Source: Candidatus Woesearchaeota archaeon (GTDB taxonomy: Archaea; Nanobdellota; Nanobdellia; SCGC-AAA011-G17; GW2011-AR17). Taken from it: DNA of 41,285 nucleotides. The stretch is taken from positions 1 through 41,285 of the forward strand of contig CAZUKZ010000004.1 of the NCBI GenBank assembly GCA_964621125.1, read 5' to 3'. The notes under the pieces were generated by a model. The model did not search any database. It was given only the letters and a program-made list of their open reading frames with translations, and was not told the DNA's origin. This document shows, piece after piece, positions 29,862-41,285 of the stretch. Made by a program: the position numbers and the translations under genes. Positions within the stretch are counted from its first letter, which is position 1, and each line of letters starts with the position of its first letter.

Positions 29862-30653
29862 ATGTCTGCTAATAAAAAATTACATGGTTGTCCTGATTGG
29901 ATGGACCCAAAATACAACGGTTGTGTTGAGTGGGGTGAAAATGGATTTAGGATGGATTTCTCTAGCCTAAGACCCCCTTGGATGGACCATGCGGGAACTA
30001 TTTCCATGAGAGGTATGCCTATGGAAGAGGAGCCTGCCAAGGAAAAAGCGAGGTTGCCTCGTGTAAAATGGGATGTGAAAAGGACTGAAAACCCACACTA
30101 TTACGATGAGGCCTTAGAAAAGATTCAAGAAAAAGGATTTGATAGGTTTCCGACTTCAAGGGAAGTCATGGCACTGATTATGGCAGACATTGAAGGGACT
30201 TTGAATGAAAAACTCTATGTTGCACATGTAGTCAAGGATTTATACAAGAAAGATAGTGAGTTCTTTTGTCAAGCATTTGAGGTTGACTACCCAATTCTAA
30301 AAGTGTATGAAAGGGTCACTTCTTTAGTTTGGGTTCGTAACCTAGGACATTATGAAAGGCCTTCAGACCCTTTATGGTATAGTGGCGTCCAAGAATTCAA
30401 TATAGACGGACTCTCGCGGGGATGCTGGAATTTTCTACCGGATGTGAATGCTATATGTCCAGAACTTATCGACAAGGTATACGGTCGACCTTACGAAGAC
30501 CTTCCCGATTGTAGACAAAATACACGATTATGGATTCCCACATGCTACCCTACACCACTTGCGTATGAAGGAGTTAACGATGCCTACAGGGTATTGGACG
30601 TAGCTCCTGGCTATAGGACGTATGCAAGAGGGGTAAAGGACATTAACCCTTAA
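29862..30653 (+). CDS. Hypothetical protein, possible C-type-lectin-fold (DGR variable-protein-like)
   Basis: YDEAL...GFDRFPTSRE motif and C-terminal YARGVK; ORF is secure, fold is inference. Confidence 0.6.
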   Translation: MSANKKLHGCPDWMDPKYNGCVEWGENGFRMDFSSLRPPWMDHAGTISMRGMPMEEEPAKEKARLPRVKWDVKRTENPHYYDEALEKIQEKGFDRFPTSREVMALIMADIEGTLNEKLYVAHVVKDLYKKDSEFFCQAFEVDYPILKVYERVTSLVWVRNLGHYERPSDPLWYSGVQEFNIDGLSRGCWNFLPDVNAICPELIDKVYGRPYEDLPDCRQNTRLWIPTCYPTPLAYEGVNDAYRVLDVAPGYRTYARGVKDINP

Positions 30654-33525
30654 CAACACCCATAGGTTTCATTTTAGCGACCTTCAAAGATATCCCTGCT
30701 TCATGCACTGATTCTATAACTTCATCAACATCCTTGTAAGCACCAGGAGCCTCCTCAGCCAAAACCTTAGGACTCGTAGATTTCACAATTTCTCCCTTAG
30801 CCTCTAATTCTCTCTGGATCTCTCCACCCCTAAAAGTGGAAATAGCCTTATTCCTAGACATGCACCGCCCAGCCCCATGGCATGAACTCCCGAAAGTCTT
30901 CTCCATAGCCATTTCAGTCCCAACCAAAATATAAGATGCAGTCCCCATACTCCCAGCAATCAATACAGGAGTATTAGGAAATGACCTTGTAGCCCCCTTC
31001 CGATGAACCAAGACTTCTTTTTTCTTACCGTTAACAGTATGCTCTTCAACTTTGGCTATGTTATGTGCTATGGCATAGATCATATGCATCTCCATATCCT
31101 TCCAACTCTTACCAAAGACTTTCTCAAAAGTCTCCCTCACCCAATGCGTCATGACTTGTCTGTTTGCAAAAGCATAATTTACCGCACATTTCATAGCTGC
31201 AAAATAATCTTGTCCTTCAGGTGAATTAAATGGTGCACACACCAGCTGCCTATCTGGCAATTTGATGCCGTACTTCTGTGCAGCTTTCTCATGAATTTTC
31301 AAATAATCAGTCGCAACTTGATGACCCAACCCACGAGATCCACAATGTAGCATTATCACCACATTACCTTTCTTCAAACCCCACTTTTTAGCCAACCCTT
31401 CGTCAAACACTTCCTCCACTCTCTGTATTTCAAGAAAATGATTCCCTGCCCCTAACGTCCCCAACTGAGGACCGCCCCTCTTCTTTGCTAAATCAGTTAC
31501 CTTAGATGGGTCAGCGCCATCCATCCGACCTTTCTCCTCAGTATGTTTTTTATCATTTTCTACACCATAACCTTTTTCAATTACCCAATCCACACCTTTT
31601 CGTAAAACCTCATTCAGTTCTTCCATAGTCAATCTCAATTTCCCCTTAGAACCAACCCCACAAGGGATAGCGTCAAACAAAGCAGGAACAAGTTCTTTCA
31701 ATTTTTCTTGTACCTCTTCAGCTGTAAGATTCGTATTTATCATGTTAATTCCGCAATTTGAAACTACAAAATTATTAGCCACAAAGTTGTGGTGTTCGTC
31801 TCTTACTGTAAAATCATAGACGTAATCGTTGAAATCTAGTTCTTTCTTATCAACAATCTTATCCCAGATTTGCCCAGTTTGCCCTAAACCATTAGTATAG
31901 ATATTCACAAACTCATCAAATTTATGGAAATTGAAAGCTACTCTTGGAACATCCTTCCTTCCCTCAAATATAGTTCTTTGTAAAAAGCGCTTATTAACAT
32001 TCCGTGATTGCAATTGCTTATAGATGTTTATCGGTCTCTCACCCTTTTTTCTTAATATATTAGCCTTTATTATAGCATTTTTTCTTTCCTTGACCACTTG
32101 AGTTTTCATGCGAAGATATTGCACGGCAGCATTAGCCAAATAACTTTTATTTTTAGCATATTCATAGCCAATCATAGACCATAATCTTATGAGGTTTTCA
32201 GGTTTTGAGGAAATCTGTAATCTTAGCCTATACTTGACCCCTTTCTTACCCACATAATCCCTTCTATGATTTATTATATTACTTTCAATACCAAAGTCTT
32301 GCAGTATATCCTGTATCTGTTTCAAGAATATTTCTCCACTTGGTATTAAAGATTCTAATTTATTTAAAGAAAAAACCGGACTATTAAAGTTAAAACCATG
32401 CCCTGTTACAGTTTTAGGAGAACTTAATTCTGCTCCGAACAATCCAGCCAAGAACAATCTCTTTTGCCATAAGGGGGCTTTCATAAGCCAACCAGGAACC
32501 TTAAAATCTGCCATTGTCTTGTCTCCTGTCGGCAAACCTAGTTCCCTTAATAGATGGAATAATGCATTTGAACTACATCTCATCTCATGAGATCTTGTGT
32601 CAAATACTACTTTCCCATAAAATGTGTCAATCTCATGATGTCTATCTCTTGAAGAAATATAAGGACTATAACCTACATGTCTTATGTCTTCTGCAACTTT
32701 TTCCATTTCATCTTTATCTTTGCTATAAGCACAAACGTAGGCTCTCCCTTTAGAGATATAAGCACAACCATCTCCCCACAAGAAACCCAATAACCTTATC
32801 AAATAAGGCAATTTCCTTGTTGAATATTTTATAGGCAACAATTGTCTTCTTTTAAGCCCATTAACAATCTGGATGTCCTTATCATCAAAATTACTCTCAG
32901 GAATGATAATATCATCCAAAGGCTCTTCATATTTTACCCCCTCAAAAGGATATATTGAAATCTTTTCATCCTTAATATTCTTCAAAGGTACCATGCCTTT
33001 TTCTGTAAATAAAGGATGATCTTCTGAACATACTATCTTCCTTCCTGAAAGAGTACTTACCTCAAATACCTTGGACTTAGGTCTTTGTTTAAAGAACAAC
33101 TCTATTTTAGTATTTTTAACTTTGGTTGTGGGATTCATGCATTTTATGCTATCTTTCGCCCACGAATAGGTAAAATCCTTAATAGGCTTAGAATAACCGA
33201 ACTCATGTAAAACTTTAGTATCTCCAGAAATGCAATTGATATCAAAACCAGTACATCCAGCAGAAATAACACCTTTCTCCAAGTCAAACGCACCTACCGC
33301 CCCCATAGGAAGCCCATACCCCCAATGCATATCAGGCAAGGCAACCACAGGCTCCAACACCCCAGGTAGACAAGCAACATTCGTTAACTGTTCGACAGCG
33401 GCATCTTCCAACCCTTCAAATATATCATCATTAGCAAAAATTTTAGCATCAACCTTCATACCTTCTCTCAATTCTTTTGAAACTAACCATTCATTTGTTC
33501 CAATTTTTTTCAGCTTATCTTTCAT
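30643..33525 (-). CDS. rtcB: RNA-splicing ligase RtcB, intein-containing (467 aa after splicing)
   Basis: PDMHWGYG, GFDIN|CG, GTLGAGNHFLE, HCGSRG, HNIAK, HRKGAT, HGAGR, EEAPGAYK. Confidence 0.96.
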   Translation of the reverse strand: MKDKLKKIGTNEWLVSKELREGMKVDAKIFANDDIFEGLEDAAVEQLTNVACLPGVLEPVVALPDMHWGYGLPMGAVGAFDLEKGVISAGCTGFDINCISGDTKVLHEFGYSKPIKDFTYSWAKDSIKCMNPTTKVKNTKIELFFKQRPKSKVFEVSTLSGRKIVCSEDHPLFTEKGMVPLKNIKDEKISIYPFEGVKYEEPLDDIIIPESNFDDKDIQIVNGLKRRQLLPIKYSTRKLPYLIRLLGFLWGDGCAYISKGRAYVCAYSKDKDEMEKVAEDIRHVGYSPYISSRDRHHEIDTFYGKVVFDTRSHEMRCSSNALFHLLRELGLPTGDKTMADFKVPGWLMKAPLWQKRLFLAGLFGAELSSPKTVTGHGFNFNSPVFSLNKLESLIPSGEIFLKQIQDILQDFGIESNIINHRRDYVGKKGVKYRLRLQISSKPENLIRLWSMIGYEYAKNKSYLANAAVQYLRMKTQVVKERKNAIIKANILRKKGERPINIYKQLQSRNVNKRFLQRTIFEGRKDVPRVAFNFHKFDEFVNIYTNGLGQTGQIWDKIVDKKELDFNDYVYDFTVRDEHHNFVANNFVVSNCGINMINTNLTAEEVQEKLKELVPALFDAIPCGVGSKGKLRLTMEELNEVLRKGVDWVIEKGYGVENDKKHTEEKGRMDGADPSKVTDLAKKRGGPQLGTLGAGNHFLEIQRVEEVFDEGLAKKWGLKKGNVVIMLHCGSRGLGHQVATDYLKIHEKAAQKYGIKLPDRQLVCAPFNSPEGQDYFAAMKCAVNYAFANRQVMTHWVRETFEKVFGKSWKDMEMHMIYAIAHNIAKVEEHTVNGKKKEVLVHRKGATRSFPNTPVLIAGSMGTASYILVGTEMAMEKTFGSSCHGAGRCMSRNKAISTFRGGEIQRELEAKGEIVKSTSPKVLAEEAPGAYKDVDEVIESVHEAGISLKVAKMKPMGVVKG
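31756..33234 (-). mobile_element. 493-aa intein with LAGLIDADG endonuclease in RtcB
   Basis: C1 (CISGDT), SEDH block B, LLGFLWGDG and FLAGLFGAE, VYDF block F, terminal SN followed by Cys+1. Confidence 0.95.
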
Positions 33526-33539
33526 TTCAACTTCCCTCC

Positions 33540-33950
33540 TTAGATGTCAACCACGACTGTAACCTTATAGCCATGCTCCGTCTCTTCAAGTTTAAATTTA
33601 TAATATGTAAGTGATTTTACCACAGTCTCGCCTTTTTCAGGTGTAATCGGTTCTCCATAAAGTTCAGCTTTCAAATGCGTATCATCAATCTGCTTAATTT
33701 CAAACTTTGAAAAGAACTTCTCTTCTATATCAACTGCAGCAATTATCTCCTGCAACCAATTGAACAATAAATCTTCCTTATCCTCACCTTTGACTTCAAC
33801 ATCAACCTTCTCTTTAGCATCAATCTTTTCAACCTTACAGATAATTGTAGATAAAGCCTTGGCTGCGTTAATAAATAATTCCTTCAAATCCCTGCCATAA
33901 GCCTCAAACATCACGTCTGAAGTCAGGTCATCTACGAATTTATATTCCAT
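33540..33950 (-). CDS. Archease
   Basis: TSDVMFEAYG..LKELF.NAA, VKSLTYY, terminal VDI; directly upstream of rtcB. Confidence 0.93.
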   Translation of the reverse strand: MEYKFVDDLTSDVMFEAYGRDLKELFINAAKALSTIICKVEKIDAKEKVDVEVKGEDKEDLLFNWLQEIIAAVDIEEKFFSKFEIKQIDDTHLKAELYGEPITPEKGETVVKSLTYYKFKLEETEHGYKVTVVVDI

Positions 33951-34460: not shown

Positions 34461-35230
34461 ACTCTCACATTCAACCTTACAGGCGTCTTCCTCCCATACA
34501 GATCTATGAAATAATCAGTCCATTCCTTGACAAACACACTAGCTTGTTGATAAGGTTTTTCCACCTCACACACTACCTTTCTGTCAATATACTTATATGT
34601 GGGCTTAGATGTTTTGATATAGTATATACTAAAATCCTTTGTAATGGGATAGTTCCATTTATCTTTAAGTTGAGCGTACTTTTTCTTATCCCCACAATTA
34701 CTTTTCACATTTTGATCTAGTTTCTTTTCCTTTAATCCTTCAATGTTTTCCACGACCCCCAAAGTTCTATCTTTAGGTGGAACAAATTTTGAAGAAGTCA
34801 GAGATCCAGATGGAAGGTAAGTAAACTCTTCCGCATGATAAAGCATGTATTTATTTGTTGAACCTGTTGTATCAGAAAAAGTTAAAACATCCCCACTAAT
34901 AGATATAGGCCTAATATTCTTAAAATCTGGATTTCCTTTATCATCTAATTTCACTACAGCAAAATATTTTACTTCATTAGGATAAAAACCAGACACATCT
35001 ATCTTAACTCTAAAATTAGAAAGAGTCCCAGGATTAACAAAAATAGGCATCTTATCCACTACAGTAGACACATCACCTCTCAACCCCACCTCCACCACCT
35101 TAACCAAATTCTGGTTATCAAAAATAGGCTGAACTCCTGGTTGAATAATCATAAACAAACTCAAGACATACACCAAAAACATCCCCATACTTATTGCCCA
35201 ATCCGCATGGCTAACTCCTTTTTTGTCCAT
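34454..35230 (-). CDS. Pilin-like protein with class III signal peptide
   Basis: MDKKG|VSHADWAISMGMFLVYVLSLF; inside the pilus operon. Confidence 0.78.
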   Translation of the reverse strand: MDKKGVSHADWAISMGMFLVYVLSLFMIIQPGVQPIFDNQNLVKVVEVGLRGDVSTVVDKMPIFVNPGTLSNFRVKIDVSGFYPNEVKYFAVVKLDDKGNPDFKNIRPISISGDVLTFSDTTGSTNKYMLYHAEEFTYLPSGSLTSSKFVPPKDRTLGVVENIEGLKEKKLDQNVKSNCGDKKKYAQLKDKWNYPITKDFSIYYIKTSKPTYKYIDRKVVCEVEKPYQQASVFVKEWTDYFIDLYGRKTPVRLNVRVW

Positions 35231-36096
35231 TATATCCCTCCTTTCACAGTTGTCACTATTAACGCAGCCGCAACAACCAATGCAATAGCATGAATTATCC
35301 CCCTTTTGAACTGCCCTTCTGAAAAAAAACCAATCATCAATCCAGCAAACCCACCCTGAATTAATAGAAGTATAAAAAAAATCTTATCCAAGTTAACAGT
35401 AACAGCCGTACCAACTCCACCACCCAATCCACCAATCCCACCCATACTAGAACCACCACCAGCCTTCCCTAACTGGGTGAGTTTAGGAAATAGTTTCAAC
35501 TGTAAAACAAGCATTATGGCTATGAATATGAAATACACCAGATAACCTTGCACAATCTGACCATAAGACCCACTTTTCTGTTCCTCTTTAAGCTTCTTCA
35601 TCGCAACCAAAGATCCAGTAACAGAATCTAGTACTTGAGATATATCTCCGCCACTAGCCTCAGCCTCAATGACAATAGATATAGCCCTTTTTATTATGAT
35701 ATTCTTAGTATCTTCAGCAAAAGTTACCATAGCCCTGTGGATTGGAATCCCTAACCTAATCTGGTTAGCCATCTTCTTAACATAAGGATCTAGTTCAGCA
35801 TAATCCTTACCAGCAGCCTGAATTATAGAAGCAGGTATAGATATGCCAGACTTTACTGCACTACCCATATTTCTAGTAAAATCCAAAAATTTCTCTTCCA
35901 ACCTTTTCTGCCTTTTCAGTTCTTTCAAGAAATCTAATAGGAACTGCACACCAGCAACAACTAATGAAATTATAAACATTGGATAGAACAATCTACTAGG
36001 ACTCCCCTTATTGAAGAAAAGTAGGAAATCCGACACTAGTAAGATTATCGCAGCTGTTATTCCTAACATGTATATTGGTTTGAATTTGAATCTCAT
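35230..36096 (-). CDS. Type II secretion system F / TadC-like membrane platform protein
   Basis: FLDFTRNMGSAVKSG...AEASGGDISQVL, multiple TMs. Confidence 0.9.
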   Translation of the reverse strand: MRFKFKPIYMLGITAAIILLVSDFLLFFNKGSPSRLFYPMFIISLVVAGVQFLLDFLKELKRQKRLEEKFLDFTRNMGSAVKSGISIPASIIQAAGKDYAELDPYVKKMANQIRLGIPIHRAMVTFAEDTKNIIIKRAISIVIEAEASGGDISQVLDSVTGSLVAMKKLKEEQKSGSYGQIVQGYLVYFIFIAIMLVLQLKLFPKLTQLGKAGGGSSMGGIGGLGGGVGTAVTVNLDKIFFILLLIQGGFAGLMIGFFSEGQFKRGIIHAIALVVAAALIVTTVKGGI

Positions 36097-37439
36097 TTTG
36101 GTTTCATTATAGATAGGAATACCATAAATCCTACATTAAGCAGAGGTATCACAACATAAGTACCGATAGTTGCAATCACACTCACAGACAATCCTCCAAT
36201 TTTTCCTCCCATACTTTGTATTATAGCTAACGTTACAAAAAAAAGTAACGGACCTGCAATTAAAATTGCAATATAAATGTCAGAATATGTAGCTATTGTC
36301 TCAACATATTTCTTCCTTTCAAGTTTATAAGTATTCAAGGCCTCTTCAGCCTTTGCTGTCAAATACTGTTTTAAGCTACCACCCGAATCAATCGTACTTA
36401 CCATGCCATCTAAAAGGTCTTTAAACCTTTGTGAGGGAGTACGCATAGACACAGCTCTCAAGGCAGTAGACAAATCGTATCCAAAAATATTAACATAGTT
36501 CACTACCTTCCTTATTTCATTTCTCAAATTAGGATACTCTCCTGATGAAAGCACGGTAGTGAATATTGAAATGGGTCTAGCTCCAGAACCGGCAACCGCA
36601 GCCATATGTATCGTGACAAAAGGTAGATCAGTTTTCATACCACTCGATTTTGAAGCAGCTTCGCTTTTAGGATACAAATACATGAACATCAATGTAACAA
36701 TAAAACCTACAAAACCCATCCCAACCCCTCTTACAACCTGTATTGCAATATTAGTATGCTTCCATAGCAATGAAGCGAGAATAGCGACAACTACAAATCC
36801 TATCAACGCAGCCAAGAACATCATGCTTACATATGTTTTAGACAATATTTTTATTCCAGATTTTCTTAAACTATCAAAAAGTGCCTCAAATGGTTCTGGA
36901 TTTTTTTTAATAAGGGATAAAGATAACTTCTCAAATAACCTATTAGCAAGAATTCCGAAATCACTGGACTTGTATAACTCATACTCCTTTAATTTTTCTT
37001 CTTTTGCCCTTTTTTCCCTTCTCCACTTTAAGTCAGATAATAGCTCCTTGTTTATACCCAATTCCTTCAAGTACTTTACTTTCTGCTTTTTTGTTAGTTT
37101 AAATGTTTGACTTGTCTTTTTCTCTTCCTTTTCTTCAACCTTTTCTTTAGGATTTCCACCCACCCTCTCCTTTATTGCAGAGCTATTATGTTTCATCTGA
37201 TCCAACAAACCTTGTATTAATTTATCATAATCAGCAACAACTTCTTCTTTTGTTTTCCCTTGCAAAAGATTATTTTTCGCCTTTACATATTTTGCTTTAG
37301 GAACCTTGTTATGTTCATAGTCATAATTTAGCTTAGCTAATCCATCTAGAAAAACCTTTTTCCTCTCTTTAGCTTCTTTTATATCCTGTGCGATAGAAGC
37401 CATACGACTGGCAGCTACCTTTGGATTAGGATTAATCAT
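36093..37439 (-). CDS. Type II secretion system F / TadB-TadC-like platform protein with long charged N-terminal extension
   Basis: DLPFVTIHMAAVAGSG...FGYDLSTAL...TPS...SGGSLKQYL. Confidence 0.9.
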   Translation of the reverse strand: MINPNPKVAASRMASIAQDIKEAKERKKVFLDGLAKLNYDYEHNKVPKAKYVKAKNNLLQGKTKEEVVADYDKLIQGLLDQMKHNSSAIKERVGGNPKEKVEEKEEKKTSQTFKLTKKQKVKYLKELGINKELLSDLKWRREKRAKEEKLKEYELYKSSDFGILANRLFEKLSLSLIKKNPEPFEALFDSLRKSGIKILSKTYVSMMFLAALIGFVVVAILASLLWKHTNIAIQVVRGVGMGFVGFIVTLMFMYLYPKSEAASKSSGMKTDLPFVTIHMAAVAGSGARPISIFTTVLSSGEYPNLRNEIRKVVNYVNIFGYDLSTALRAVSMRTPSQRFKDLLDGMVSTIDSGGSLKQYLTAKAEEALNTYKLERKKYVETIATYSDIYIAILIAGPLLFFVTLAIIQSMGGKIGGLSVSVIATIGTYVVIPLLNVGFMVFLSIMKPK

Positions 37440-37608
37440 TTTGTAAGTTTGATTCTTCTGTCTCTACAAGCTCATCTATGTTAGACAATAAAGATAACAT
37501 ATAATCCCTTATCTCTTCAGCTTCCTTCCCATCCCGAAGTAACTGGTCATATAAGTATGAAGCCTCTACTATAGAGTTCGCGTTTTGTCTTATCAAATCT
37601 AATGTCAT
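37432..37608 (-). CDS. 58-aa acidic helical protein not in the ORF track (MTLDLIRQNANSIVEASYLYDQLLRDGKEAEEIRDYMLSLLSNIDELVETEESNLQND)
   Basis: Manually translated; ATGA overlap with the ATPase stop and 8-nt overlap with the next gene's start. Confidence 0.72.
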   Translation of the reverse strand: MTLDLIRQNANSIVEASYLYDQLLRDGKEAEEIRDYMLSLLSNIDELVETEESNLQND

Positions 37609-40600
37609 GGTATCTTAAACTTCTCCAGTATAACTTCGGGTGTCTTGTAGTACTTATGTATGACTTTCTGTACTTCTTCAAAGCCAGTAATTTTATTCCT
37701 GTATAGCGCCATGATTATCGCTACTCTCCTCTTAAACTCATTAAGAAGCTGTGGCCAGCTCATACCAGATCTACTCATTATCTTCTTGAACATCTGACTG
37801 TCTGTCTTGAATAAGAATGTATCTGTTGCAGGGTCTCTCCTAAAAGGCGTATTCAATGTCACCTGTCCTGAAGCATTGACATTAACAATTTCCACTACTT
37901 CCCTTATCCTTCTGGCAGGCTTTCCTTTTACTTTAGTCTGCTCAATAATACATACAGCATCTAATGATTCAATTAACGCAGGAGACAAACTTATAGGTGG
38001 CGTCTCTAACCTCTGTATTAAAGTATGTACAGAATCCGCGTGCATTGTCCCATAACTTGGGTGTCCTGAAGCCATACCTTGAAATAAAACATAAGCTTCC
38101 TTTCCTCTTATTTCCCCTACAATTATATAATCAGGCCTCTGCCTCAAACTCTCTTTCAAAAGATCAAACAGACTTACTTCTCCCGCCTTTTCCCCAGTTA
38201 TGGCCGCCATACCTACACCAGCTCTAGCAATTGCAGGCAACCAATTTTCATGCATTAAGTTGAGCTCTTTCGTATTATGTAAAATTACGTTAGAACAAAT
38301 GAACTTTTCTGTTCCTGGCACACTAATGTCATAAACATATCTTTCTTTAGACCTAAGTTTTTCTACACTCTTCACTTTATCCCAAAATAAGTCTGAGTGA
38401 GATATATCATTGAATAAAGATCCTTTTTGAGCAATTCTTTGGAGATACTCTCTTCCAATATTATTTTTTCCATTTAAATATCCCGAAGTGAGTTTATGAT
38501 AACTGTGAATTTTTTTCATATGATCCTTATTTAAGGGAACTATATCAGAACAAGTATGATGTGCTTTCTTGTTGCATATGCTTGATAATTTATTATTTTT
38601 TCTTTCTTGAAGAAATGCAATTTTTTTGAATTTTGTTACATTTTCATGTGAAGATATTGAAAGATAGAGACATTTGTCTTTTCTATAAAATTGCCTAATC
38701 CTAGATATAATACCCATCCTCAAGAAAATAGTTTGTAAATCATATAACAAACCATAACTTTGTGAAGCACAACTTACCTCATGCTTCTGTACAGTTCCAT
38801 CAGCACTAAAATAACCTCTTATTACATGCTTTATCTGATCATGACTAAGATTGAAAATGAATTGAGGGATTCTCTTTGTCGCAGAGTGTCCTCTAAGACC
38901 AATAACCTCTCTCATAAACTTATAAAAAACCGTACTATTAATAGTTAAAGAAACACGGTCATTCATCTTTGAAAAATTAATATTCAAGTGTTTTGCAAAC
39001 TTTTTAACAAGATTACGACATTCTTTATCTGAATTAGAAATTATAACTCGATTAGCATTAAATCTATCATAGGAACCATCACCAATCCACAACCCAATTA
39101 ATTCTAAAAAGTCTTTTGTTATATCAAATATAACTGGCAAAGAAGTCTGCATATTAGTCTTTATTCTTAAGTTTTTCAAATCTTTTTTACTGAACTTAAA
39201 ATCAACTTTCAATAAATCCTTAATTTTAATAAGGTTATGTGCCTTCCACCATTGATATTTGCTTTTTCCTACTTTAAAATCTTGATATTTATATGTTTCA
39301 AAAAGCTCCTTTATAGGTTCTCCAGCCAAAAACTCTTCTTTAAATACATTTAAGTGATCCAAAAGGTTAATAAAATCACATTTTGTTCCTTTAAACGGAA
39401 TTTTCCTTGGGACAGCTATGAAATTTTCATTTGGGATAAGATCAGTGGGTTTAGTCTCTTTAAGTCCAAGATTTCCCATAGTGAACAAAGAATGGTCCTT
39501 AGTTACTTTTACAACTCTTCCAGAAGCGGTTGTTATCTTATATATGTCTTTTTTCACCTTATGTTTCAAGAGCAGACTAGGCTTCACAAACTTCACCTTG
39601 TAATCATCACTTACAGTTAAGATTTCAGAATCTGTTTTTTGCCTATTATGTTTTATAAACTTATCAATACGCATATTTTTTACTTTACTATTAATGTCTT
39701 TAACCAATATTTCAGCATCGCCAGTGACACTATCTTCAATACTTACTATTCTAGCAGCAGGGGGTATGAAAAAGGCTACTGCGTTTAGTAAACTGGTCTT
39801 ACCTGCTCCAGTCCCACCAACCACCAACAGGCTTGCCTTATACTCCACCAACAGCCACAAGTATGCCAACATCTCTGGTGAAACAGTCCTAAATTGCATC
39901 AATTTGACAGGAGTCCAAGGAACTTTTGTGAACTTCCTCAATGTATCAAACATGTTAAAGGGCTTATTTCCTGCTATAAAGTAATTACAGGGCTCTAATT
40001 CAATATCATAAACTGGAAGTCTTTTCTTATTATCAAATAATTTAACAGATTTTACTTCAATGAACTCATGCTTTGTTTTAAGTAAAAATTCAATGTATTT
40101 TAAAACACTTTTAGTTGAATTTGTCTGTTTTTGTTTTTTGAAAAATTTAAGCAATTTGTAAGCTAAATGTTCAGATATTGATTTGAGATAAAAAGAACCA
40201 TATGAAGCTTTAATCTCCTTACACAGCCTAAACTTCACTAAACCATATTCTTTAATCAGATAAAGAAAAGGCTCAATAGGAATTCTCTTAAAATTTTTAT
40301 GATTTCTGATGTTTTTTCTCCTATTTAAAACTCTTTCTTTAAGTTTGTTGTGCTTGCTTTTTTCCGTAAAGCCAATATTCTCAAGATAAGCCTTTTCATA
40401 TGAAGCTGGAATTAGAACTTGATACAAGTCTCTTTTGTTAATGATAGAATAAATCCCAAATCTAGCAAGAAGAAAAGTTAATTGTTCAGCTAATTTTTTT
40501 GAAGCAGTCTTGTACGATAAACCTGAACTTACAGTCCCATCACCATCAAACAACCCTTCAATAAATTTAGCTACTACCTTATTTGAAGATTGAAATATTT

Positions 40601-41285
40601 CTTGAGGAATCCCTACTATCTTAGACTTTTTCCCCATTGGAACTTTGAATATTTGATTAAGATAGTAGGAAATAAATTGATTACATAAATATACTCTAGT
40701 CCCTTGATAATAGGTATTCTGCTTTCCAAAAAGGCCACTAACAATCTTTTGAATCTTTGTTGCCAACTCTTTTTTAAAACCAAGCACATAAACATAATTT
40801 TTGGTAAGATGACCATCACTAATTATCATACCAATAAGATAAGCAAGCCTTTCATTCAATTTATTTGGTAATTGGACATATTTTATTCCATTTTTTGAGC
40901 CTCCACCTTTCACTGACACTTTCAAATTCAATGAATTTATGTCAATTTCCAATTTATCACAGATTTTTATAAATAATGATGCTTCTATGGCACTATTCCT
41001 GCTTAACACTTCATAAAAATAAGAATGGTGCTGTCCTAATTCTCTCTGTAATTTTTTTCTATTTAGCCTATTGCCGCGAAATTTGAAATTTTTTAAATAT
41101 TCCTTTAATATATTTTTAACAGGGTTTGTAGGATAGATATTTAAAGCCTTTTTTTTAGGAAAAGAAAGTAATAAATCTTTAATATTAAAATTATTTATTT
41201 TCCCTTTAATATTAACTTTTGTTGGAATTGGAAGGAACATACCTTTTTTAATATCCTTGGCTTCAATCAACTCAAGTTTTTCAGC
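37605..41285 (-). CDS. Type IV pilus/secretion ATPase (VirB11/TadA/FlaI family) with two inteins; 5' end outside the window
   Basis: Exteins: TLRKF, GGTGAGKT, SIED|TKEL, LRQRPDYIIVGEIRG, SGH...TMHA; frame is open to the window edge. Confidence 0.93.
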   Translation of the reverse strand, partial: AEKLELIEAKDIKKGMFLPIPTKVNIKGKINNFNIKDLLLSFPKKKALNIYPTNPVKNILKEYLKNFKFRGNRLNRKKLQRELGQHHSYFYEVLSRNSAIEASLFIKICDKLEIDINSLNLKVSVKGGGSKNGIKYVQLPNKLNERLAYLIGMIISDGHLTKNYVYVLGFKKELATKIQKIVSGLFGKQNTYYQGTRVYLCNQFISYYLNQIFKVPMGKKSKIVGIPQEIFQSSNKVVAKFIEGLFDGDGTVSSGLSYKTASKKLAEQLTFLLARFGIYSIINKRDLYQVLIPASYEKAYLENIGFTEKSKHNKLKERVLNRRKNIRNHKNFKRIPIEPFLYLIKEYGLVKFRLCKEIKASYGSFYLKSISEHLAYKLLKFFKKQKQTNSTKSVLKYIEFLLKTKHEFIEVKSVKLFDNKKRLPVYDIELEPCNYFIAGNKPFNMFDTLRKFTKVPWTPVKLMQFRTVSPEMLAYLWLLVEYKASLLVVGGTGAGKTSLLNAVAFFIPPAARIVSIEDSVTGDAEILVKDINSKVKNMRIDKFIKHNRQKTDSEILTVSDDYKVKFVKPSLLLKHKVKKDIYKITTASGRVVKVTKDHSLFTMGNLGLKETKPTDLIPNENFIAVPRKIPFKGTKCDFINLLDHLNVFKEEFLAGEPIKELFETYKYQDFKVGKSKYQWWKAHNLIKIKDLLKVDFKFSKKDLKNLRIKTNMQTSLPVIFDITKDFLELIGLWIGDGSYDRFNANRVIISNSDKECRNLVKKFAKHLNINFSKMNDRVSLTINSTVFYKFMREVIGLRGHSATKRIPQFIFNLSHDQIKHVIRGYFSADGTVQKHEVSCASQSYGLLYDLQTIFLRMGIISRIRQFYRKDKCLYLSISSHENVTKFKKIAFLQERKNNKLSSICNKKAHHTCSDIVPLNKDHMKKIHSYHKLTSGYLNGKNNIGREYLQRIAQKGSLFNDISHSDLFWDKVKSVEKLRSKERYVYDISVPGTEKFICSNVILHNTKELNLMHENWLPAIARAGVGMAAITGEKAGEVSLFDLLKESLRQRPDYIIVGEIRGKEAYVLFQGMASGHPSYGTMHADSVHTLIQRLETPPISLSPALIESLDAVCIIEQTKVKGKPARRIREVVEIVNVNASGQVTLNTPFRRDPATDTFLFKTDSQMFKKIMSRSGMSWPQLLNEFKRRVAIIMALYRNKITGFEEVQKVIHKYYKTPEVILEKFKIP
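38274..39731 (-). mobile_element. 486-aa intein (Ser1) with LAGLIDADG endonuclease in the ATPase Asp box
   Basis: SVTGD start, TKDH block B, LIGLWIGDG and IRGYFSADG, VYDISV, terminal HN followed by Thr+1. Confidence 0.95.
39945..41285 (-). mobile_element. Intein (5'-truncated by the window) with LAGLIDADG endonuclease, ending Phe-Asp
   Basis: LIGMIISDG and FIEGLFDGDG, VYDIEL block F, YFIAG...NMFD followed by extein TLRKF. Confidence 0.9.

Follow-up and report, generated by a model that had tools for sequence, protein, structure and literature searches.

Asparagine cyclisation in inteins is usually assisted by two histidine residues. To our knowledge, inteins that end in aspartate instead of asparagine are known mainly from one studied example. 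This is the intein of the Carboxydothermus hydrogenoformans ribonucleotide reductase (Chy RIR1), for which Amitai, Dassa and Pietrokovski reportedly proposed in 2004 (J Biol Chem 279:3121) that step 3 of splicing proceeds by Asp cyclisation. Gln-ended inteins (Pol II of Pyrococcus abyssi and Methanoculleus marisnigri; RNR of Chilo iridescent virus) likewise have the step-3 residue swapped for another cyclisable one, but they reside in other hosts, and Gln rather than Asp is the residue, giving a six-membered glutarimide. According to two reviews, inteins with a C-terminal Asp or Gln exist and are able to cyclise in step 3, other mechanisms having also been proposed for them (PMC4031507; PMC2807308). 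One of these allows class 1 inteins to carry Asp, Gln or Glu where Asn is usual and reports that some Gln-ended inteins perform better with their native residue than with Asn (PMC4031507). As the preliminary description of the present locus had stated, Asp-ended inteins are a documented minority, and step-3 chemistry with Asp is already known, not new.

Here we analyse an intein ending in Phe-Asp (intein 1) in a type IV filament assembly ATPase of a Woesearchaeota archaeon. Like Chy RIR1, it is otherwise of class 1 but has Asp rather than Asn at its C terminus, and for both inteins step 3 is proposed to proceed by Asp cyclisation. The host protein and the insertion site are different, and the likeness to Chy RIR1 is one of the terminal residue. 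Furthermore, Asp is fixed throughout the lineage of intein 1, at two archaeal ATPase sites, and intein 1 combines it with a penultimate Phe and no block F His.

Other relatives, which occupy the Walker A site (GxGK/C...HN/T, slashes marking junctions; for example in P0148, P0062 and P0137), are canonical His-Asn inteins. They share the host family and the LAGLIDADG architecture with intein 1 and were the best-scoring Asn-ended relatives against a profile of the Asp-ended family (150-205 bits), but they end in His-Asn, read HNF in block F and fall on the opposite side of a branch of the tree described below. KlbA inteins reside in a related secretion-type ATPase. Class 2 (KlbA) and class 3 (WCT) inteins, like intein 1, depart from the standard way of splicing (PMC4031507; PMC2807308). 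Both classes lack a nucleophile at position 1, and class 3 inteins have a Cys at block F position 4, whereas intein 1 has Cys1 and an Asp at the latter position; a class 2 or class 3 mechanism was ruled out on these grounds. The nearest solved structures by sequence were PI-PkoII (2cw7) and archaeal V-ATPase inteins (7qss, 7qst, 7qsu), a weak match (E 9e-09 to 3e-07) made mostly via the endonuclease domain. Block F of the solved inteins aligns to intein 1 as VYDI..E.HN.F..GN.P.

The host ATPase and its surroundings

The window, that is, the whole stretch of DNA analysed, comprises 41,285 nucleotides. The host gene, the parts of it outside intein 1 and the neighbouring genes are as follows.

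35230..37439, minus strand: two downstream genes with one T2SSF domain each (FlaJ/TadC-type membrane platform; Pfam T2SSF 63.6 and 55.6 bits)
37605..41285, minus strand: open reading frame of the host gene, a FlaI/TadA-like type IV filament assembly ATPase (T2SSE family; Pfam T2SSE, PF00437, 88.8 bits)
37608..38273, minus strand: C-extein, 222 residues, with Walker B PDYIIVGEIRG
38274..39731, minus strand: intein 2, canonical, 486 residues, with Ser1 after SIED, a VILHN end before TKEL and its own LAGLIDADG endonuclease (Pfam Intein_splicing 79.4 bits at 536-1004)
39732..39944, minus strand: extein segment separating inteins 1 and 2, 71 residues, with Walker A GGTGAGKTS

The full host ORF has 1564 codons and is open throughout, its initial 338 codons lying beyond the window end on the same contig. 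The T2SSE domain, the Walker A and Walker B motifs and adjacent T2SSF genes were all found, in agreement with the preliminary description, which had placed the intein in a pilus ATPase. The best NCBIfam match was FlaI, with a score below the equivalog cut-off, and the protein is a FlaI/PilB/TadA-type enzyme that may serve either an archaellum or a pilus. The two T2SSF platform genes are its partners.

This ATPase is the only close FlaI-type ATPase in the genome (89% complete), and apart from one distant paralogue we found no intein-free copy of it there. Because of this, and because of its position ahead of the two T2SSF genes, the host would need the spliced product. The gene harbors two selfish inteins, both of which presumably splice out, and for this archaeon's own biology an intein-bearing pilus ATPase is ordinary.

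Junctions and anatomy of intein 1

Intein 1 runs from Cys1 to Phe-Asp over 543 residues, seven of which are masked by a run of 19 N immediately beyond the window end. Its N-terminal portion lies on the contig outside the window.

39942..39944, minus strand: codon ACA, Thr+1, first residue of the C-extein and step-2 nucleophile (Thr in same-site homologues except P0057, Ser, and P0107, Cys)
39945..39947, minus strand: codon GAT, C-terminal Asp of intein 1 (Asn in canonical inteins; Asp in 58/58 aligned inteins)
39948..39950, minus strand: codon TTT, penultimate Phe (His in canonical inteins; Phe in 56/58 and His in 2/58 aligned inteins)
39945..40013, minus strand: blocks F and G, VYDIELEPCNYFIAGNKPFNMFD (from the alignment; block F Asp D523 invariant)
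40530..40571, minus strand: LAGLIDADG motif 2, AKFIEGLFDGDGTV (Asp kept in 57/58)
40806..40847, minus strand: LAGLIDADG motif 1 of the endonuclease, LAYLIGMIISDGHL (Pfam LAGLIDADG_3 55.3 bits; Asp kept in 57/58)
39945..41285, minus strand: in-window part of intein 1, residues 97-543 of 543 (boundaries by comparison with intein-less homologues)
Contig 41286-41573, outside the window, minus strand: Cys1, block A and block B

Read on the minus strand, the C-junction is NKPFNMFD/TLRKF; the reverse complement of 39930-39962 is CCC TTT AAC ATG TTT GAT ACA TTG AGG AAG TTC, or PFNMFDTLRKF. The last intein residue is indeed Asp and the penultimate one Phe, as first described. The N-extein ends in SRGPTF just past the window end, directly before Cys1, and the open frame begins 242 codons ahead of Cys1 on the contig. 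In intein-less homologues (P0062-P0099, and 23 of 29 loci read in relatives) GPTF/T[IL]RKF is uninterrupted, which fixes the junction to the residue and bears out the earlier view of T[IL]RKF as extein. A junction after Asn540 (PFN/MFD) was ruled out: its +1 residue would be Met, Ile or Val, none of them a nucleophile, and the extein would gain an xFD that is present in no intein-less homologue.

We then compared the splicing motifs in an alignment of 58 inteins. The residues C1, T87, D523, P528, G535, P538 and D543 were invariant, and His was found at position 90 in 57/57 homologues. In the window's copy the codon for this block B His reads CA followed by masked bases, and H90 was inferred from the homologues for this reason; T87 is present. 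Every unmasked near-invariant residue is retained. The position 1 nucleophile is Cys (58/58), and block F position 4 is the Asp D523 of VYDIE (58/58). The His-Asn that marks the C terminus of class 1 inteins is absent, the intein ending in Phe-Asp; since Asp is an accepted class 1 alternative to Asn, this end does not bar class 1 membership. Cys529 occupies roughly the position expected of the helper His in block F, and the alignment to 7qsu sets EPCN opposite ETHN, although the alignment of block F is uncertain by one residue, so that either Cys529 or residue 530 stands opposite the usual His.

LAGLIDADG_3 (PF14528) matched in two stretches with 55.3 bits, and D253 and D343 are kept in 57/58 aligned inteins. 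The window's piece, which lacks the N-terminal part, matched endonuclease models only and not the Pfam splicing model, and the N-terminal piece scored 22.3 bits on TIGR01445 (cut-off, 24.5). A complete homologue, P0026, reached 49 bits on Pfam Intein_splicing (PF14890; cut-off, 35.8), the match stopping short of the model's last six positions.

Terminal aspartate across the intein lineage

Three homologue searches yielded 68 inteins at the same site (the window's own plus 60, 3 and 4 new ones), many of them merely 26-47% identical to the window's intein. All 68 end in Asp (FD in 59, HD in 7, YD in 2) and none in Asn. The preliminary description had proposed to look for FD/T at this site: the Asp is conserved without exception, while the penultimate residue varies. 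It had also allowed for homologues that all end in Asn, and the result was the opposite. The ATPase family has a second insertion site, GEV/[ST]ML, where related inteins end in Asp as well (13/13), which brings the lineage total to 81/81 inteins seen at two insertion sites. By sequence, intein 1 belongs to this lineage, in which the C-terminal residue is always Asp. Both Asp codons occur among the six genomes read (GAT in 2, GAC in 4), and AAT or AAC, each one transition away, was never seen among them.

In a tree from a quick search, 41 sampled Asp-ended rows fell on one side of a branch and 24 Asn-ended inteins, taken as outgroup from the best matches, on the other (SH-aLRT 97; one change; 35 FD rows omitted). 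This split by a single branch indicates that Asp is an old, inherited trait. The penultimate His is missing in 56/58 and the block F His in about 55/58 of the aligned inteins, 51/58 having Cys at the expected position of the latter. Additionally, both Asp-ended families conserve a Glu (E503) at a position that is mostly Phe in the Asn-ended inteins.

The named sources of the homologues are mostly Pacearchaeota, Nanoarchaeota, Woesearchaeota, Micrarchaeota, Diapherotrites and Aenigmarchaeota. Among close relatives the intein is patchy: it was found in 5/60 relatives searched, and of 29 orthologous loci read, 23 had an empty site, 5 carried the intein and 1 gave no clear reading. Judged from this pattern, intein 1 looks like a selfish mobile element rather than a host regulator. 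Our literature search found no report of an Asp-ended intein lineage in archaeal pilus-type ATPases; the matches on C-terminal Asp or aspartate concerned the -1 residue or the word asparagine. A supplementary file of Novikova et al. 2016 gives per-species counts of VirB11 inteins, without terminal residues.

Possible readings of the Phe-Asp end

Taken together, intein 1 is probably a class 1 intein that is both functional and mobile and carries a LAGLIDADG endonuclease. Its branched intermediate would be resolved by Asp cyclisation, and its Phe-Asp end most likely represents a rare variant that works rather than a broken copy. The sequences establish directly how intein 1 is built, where exactly its junctions lie, that Asp and the other splicing residues are invariant and that the distribution is patchy; that intein 1 splices, and that it does so via Asp cyclisation, we infer from them. 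Steps 1 and 2 would likely proceed as usual, with a thioester forming at Cys1 and the N-extein then passing to Thr+1 to give a branched ester. In step 3, the terminal Asp would use its side-chain carboxyl, in place of an Asn amide, to attack the backbone carbonyl of the same residue. The intein would leave as a cyclic anhydride that is hydrolysed back to Asp, and the ester would finally shift to a peptide bond. The two usual helper histidines would be dispensable or substituted, the penultimate residue being Phe and block F offering Cys/Lys. Because both are missing, step 3 might be slow or might follow a route other than cyclisation. Variant chemistry, one of the options in the preliminary description, is the likely branch, but such chemistry is already known.

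The lineage of intein 1 is large, old and natural and spans several DPANN groups. Its members all share the terminal Asp, and most of them also lack both helper histidines. They represent a ready natural panel for studying how Asp cyclisation is catalysed without His, and they offer engineers candidates for C-terminal cleavage, possibly pH-tunable. For annotation, they are a warning that a missing His-Asn is not proof of a dead intein or of a wrong boundary.

Redox- and pH-regulated splicing has been described for other inteins, and intein 1 could be conditional too, as had been suggested. Step 3 would then depend on pH, through protonation of the Asp, or on redox state, through a Cys1-Cys529 disulfide, and the environment would switch maturation of the pilus ATPase. 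The C-terminal active site has indeed changed in a coordinated manner (Asp for Asn, Phe for His, Cys in 51/58 at the block F His), Cys1 is invariant, and the Glu at position 503 separates both Asp-ended families from most Asn-ended inteins. However, the sequences carry no sign of conditionality. Neither the deeper HD/YD branches nor the second-site family has the block F Cys, yet they all end in Asp, so that the two residues are not linked. Furthermore, the site is empty in most orthologous loci read (23/29), so that the host would not depend on the intein as a regulator, and a homing endonuclease that looks active agrees with a selfish element. We consider conditional splicing unlikely, and a conditional gating of pilus assembly finds no support in these sequences. 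A broader form of the idea, which we also regard as unlikely, would make the Asp-ended pilus-ATPase inteins a distinct mechanistic subclass, with the Asp carboxyl as nucleophile, no helper His and new conserved partners such as Glu503 and, within the DPANN branch, also Cys529. In these host-dependent archaea, pH or redox state would then influence how their sole pilus ATPase is spliced.

It is very improbable that the insert is retained as an extra domain in the mature ATPase, near the junction of its N- and C-terminal domains, or that it cleaves without ligating. By analogy with known FlaI structures, the insertion site presumably falls between the two domains of such ATPases, and the usual step-3 helpers are missing. 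Nevertheless, Cys1, the Thr and His of block B, the Asp of block F and the terminal Asp are all invariant, which would be pointless without splicing, and intein-less orthologues share GPTF/TIRKF as an uninterrupted and highly conserved stretch.

Scarcely credible is a disabled or decaying allele, the other option raised at first, in which a change from Asn to Asp abolished C-terminal cleavage and left the ATPase dead or unspliced. The canonical His-Asn is missing, and mutation of the terminal Asn blocks step 3 in many inteins, Asn341Ala being an example given in a review (PMC2807308). However, a decaying copy would be at odds with an Asp that is invariant at both sites (68/68 and 13/13) with synonymous variation of its codon, with the retention of all other catalytic and endonuclease residues, with the open frame across 1564 codons and with the lack of an intein-free ATPase copy in the genome bar the distant paralogue. 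On this sequence evidence, we reject the disabled allele in favor of a working Asp-ended intein.

A sequencing or assembly error hiding a true AAT codon is of negligible probability. The depth is only about 4 in the runs found, but Logan contigs from two runs (X1 record 5, 39898-40287; X2 record 13, 39899-40286) show 0 differences over the codon, a weak check in that these runs are possibly the source sample, or one data set deposited twice, and may not be independent (runs X3 and X4 do not cover 39945-39947). The stronger check comes from the homologues: all 67 other same-site inteins end in Asp, and five other genomes have GAT or GAC at this codon.

Host gene and junctions of the insert

The insert studied here, intein 1, interrupts an open frame in which Pfam recognizes a T2SSE ATPase domain, an intein splicing domain and LAGLIDADG domains. 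The top NCBIfam match of the host protein was the archaellum ATPase FlaI, with a score under the cut-off, and two genes for T2SSF platform-domain proteins lie downstream. The T2SSE domain, the FlaI best match and the two T2SSF genes together identify the host as a FlaI/TadA-type type IV filament ATPase, of either a pilus or an archaellum. The same gene holds a second, canonical intein (intein 2).

37605 to the window end, continuing in the contig, minus strand: open frame with intein 1, 1564 codons in total, ATG start beyond the window
39945-39947, minus strand: Asp codon GAT of intein 1, preceded by TTT and followed by ACA
Between SIED and TKEL, minus strand: intein 2, 486 residues, starting with Ser1 and ending in VILHN

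The reverse complement of 39930-39962 reads ...PFNMFDTLRKF. The N-extein, of 242 residues, has SRGPTF as its last six and is followed, just past the window end, by CFREGYIQLHDG; the insert is therefore Cys1...Phe542-Asp543. In the insert-free homologues P0062-P0099, the sequence ...GPTF/T[IL]RKFT... (the slash marking the junction) is uninterrupted. Together with TTT GAT ACA, these empty sites bear out the preliminary description of an ATPase intein ending in Phe-Asp before TLRKF. A junction after Asn540 was excluded, as it leaves Met, Ile or Val at +1 and adds residues seen in no empty site. Just past the window end, 19 bases within block B are masked as N (2500-2518 of the contig piece L001), affecting seven codons; the reading frame is kept across them, and of the block B His codon only CA is visible.

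No other close FlaI-type ATPase was found in the window's genome, which is 89% complete. A second T2SSE-type ATPase on its contig C40 (L011 55-2217, 720 codons) is very divergent and intein-free, and has AFSFRRHR at the position of FTLRKF in the FlaI-type protein.

Asp endings at two insertion sites

As the query for a search of 5.8 billion protein clusters, we used the intein as far as it lies in the window, together with the next extein segment. Sixty proteins had an intein at the GPTF/T site, all Asp-ended (58 Phe-Asp and 2 His-Asp) and directly followed by [TS][ILV]R[KQR]F. Three additional ones, P0107 (Tyr-Asp/Cys), P0109 (His-Asp/Thr) and P0111 (Tyr-Asp/Thr), came to light when 1.84 billion representatives were scanned in full with HMMER, and a search seeded with P0109 gave four further same-site inteins, all His-Asp/Thr. 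Aligning same-site homologues had been suggested as a check, and the Asp ending proved common to 68/68 inteins, the window's copy included (59 Phe-Asp, 7 His-Asp and 2 Tyr-Asp), with none ending in Asn. Across six genomes, the Asp codon was GAT in two and GAC in four, while Asn, one transition off, was never found; judged from these codons, this has the look of purifying selection on Asp.

In two of the better matches (P0108 and P0113), a related intein interrupts the same ATPase family at a different position, GEV/C...D/[ST]MLDL, immediately ahead of the Walker B motif. A search seeded with this second-site intein yielded 13 inteins from other genomes (P0113, P0108 and P0249-P0259), of which 13/13 are Asp-ended, with Met (8), Gln (3), Leu (1) or Glu (1) as the penultimate residue. 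GEV[ST]ML is uninterrupted in homologues without it. In a maximum-likelihood tree of 65 inteins (41 with terminal Asp; 24 with terminal Asn, drawn from the best matches), built by a quick search with 35 rows of the dense Phe-Asp group omitted and the trait's own column kept in, every Asp-ended row fell on one side of one branch (SH-aLRT 97), corresponding to one state change. By profile score, the closest Asn-ended inteins are of the canonical His-Asn type and interrupt the Walker A site in this ATPase family.

Active-site residues and proposed splicing

We aligned 58 same-site inteins, leaving out two truncated proteins and P0011. Cys1, Thr87 (block B), Asp523 (block F position 4), Pro528, Gly535, Pro538 and Asp543 are invariant. 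The block B His90 is present in 57/57, the count being over 57 because the window's own codon is masked, and the acidic residue of both LAGLIDADG motifs is kept in 57/58. All unmasked near-invariant residues are present in the window's intein 1. The penultimate His is replaced by Phe in 56/58, and the usual block F His-Asn-Phe position reads Cys-Lys-Phe-Phe (Cys in 51/58; Cys-Asn-Tyr-Phe in the window's copy). Against the solved V-ATPase intein 7qsu, EPCN aligns with ETHN, ambiguously by one residue. Both Asp-ended families conserve Glu503, a position that is mostly Phe in Asn-ended inteins. In our alignment, the second-site family has Thr in place of the otherwise near-universal block B His.

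Intein 1 is most likely an active, mobile intein, since Cys1, block B and the block F Asp are conserved, the endonuclease is intact, its presence is patchy and the host is the only close FlaI-type ATPase. Passages of PMC4031507 describe loss of the penultimate His as tolerated in many inteins. Splicing steps 1, 2 and 4 would be standard, and in step 3, on the simplest reading, the terminal Asp would cyclise onto its own backbone carbonyl. A carboxylate becomes a nucleophile without a base, and we infer that this may be the reason both helper histidines could go.

If the insert instead stayed in the ATPase as a domain, the upkeep of the splicing residues would be unexplained. The preliminary description had proposed variant or conditional chemistry that could gate pilus assembly, or else a disabled allele; of these, variant chemistry, of a known kind, is the likely one. 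Conditional splicing (by pH or redox) as such a gate is improbable, and nothing supports it. The block F Cys is missing from the deeper His-Asp/Tyr-Asp branches and from the second-site family, and most orthologues have no intein. A dead allele is contradicted by the open reading frame and by conservation of Asp in 81/81 inteins of the lineage. A sequencing error is contradicted by the Asp of the homologues and by agreement of the Logan contigs of two runs (0 differences at the codon, depth ~4), to which we give little weight because both runs may come from the source sample, or be duplicate deposits of a single data set.

In these runs (X1 and X2), contigs have loose ends at window positions 40093 and 41169, one contig each running into unlike sequence, possibly because these samples also contain a second strain or a different variant of the intein.

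The Carboxydothermus RNR intein, reportedly from work by Amitai et al. in 2004, is the studied Asp-ended example and shares this ending with intein 1; Asp-ended inteins are already a known kind. Novikova et al. count 21 inteins in archaeal VirB11-type ATPases, and a supplementary file of that study gives no terminal residues. We found no account of an Asp-ended lineage in the literature searched on inteins in FlaI, archaellum or type IV pilus ATPases and DPANN archaea, and the natural lineage holding intein 1 seems to be undescribed in print. The Asp-ended lineage should be of use to intein chemists and annotators; for the organism's biology, intein 1 is ordinary.

Occupancy in relatives and neighbouring inteins

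An N-extein orthologue was present in 38/60 relatives of the window's genome. Among 29 loci fetched from relatives, the GPTF/T[IL]RKF site was empty in 23 and occupied in 5 (four found by pattern, the fifth in genome G015), and one was not resolved. The intein was found in 5/60 close relatives searched, a patchy distribution. The empty site of locus L040 (genome G038) is GPSF/VIRKF, all others having Thr at +1; with Val instead of the Thr nucleophile, an intein there could not splice. Orthologues P0002, P0003, P0006 and P0016 from other genomes have 2011-2123 residues and, at this length, must hold several inteins. Such orthologues also carry a His-Asn intein at a further site, ...CCHN/SRVNATY, upstream of GPTF/T[IL]RKF, as in P0067 and P0072 among others.

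Elsewhere in the window, the gene for the tRNA ligase RtcB (30643-33525, minus strand, 960 codons) contains an intein of its own, which includes a LAGLIDADG domain. Immediately upstream of this gene is the one for archease (33540-33950, minus strand), a known partner of RtcB.
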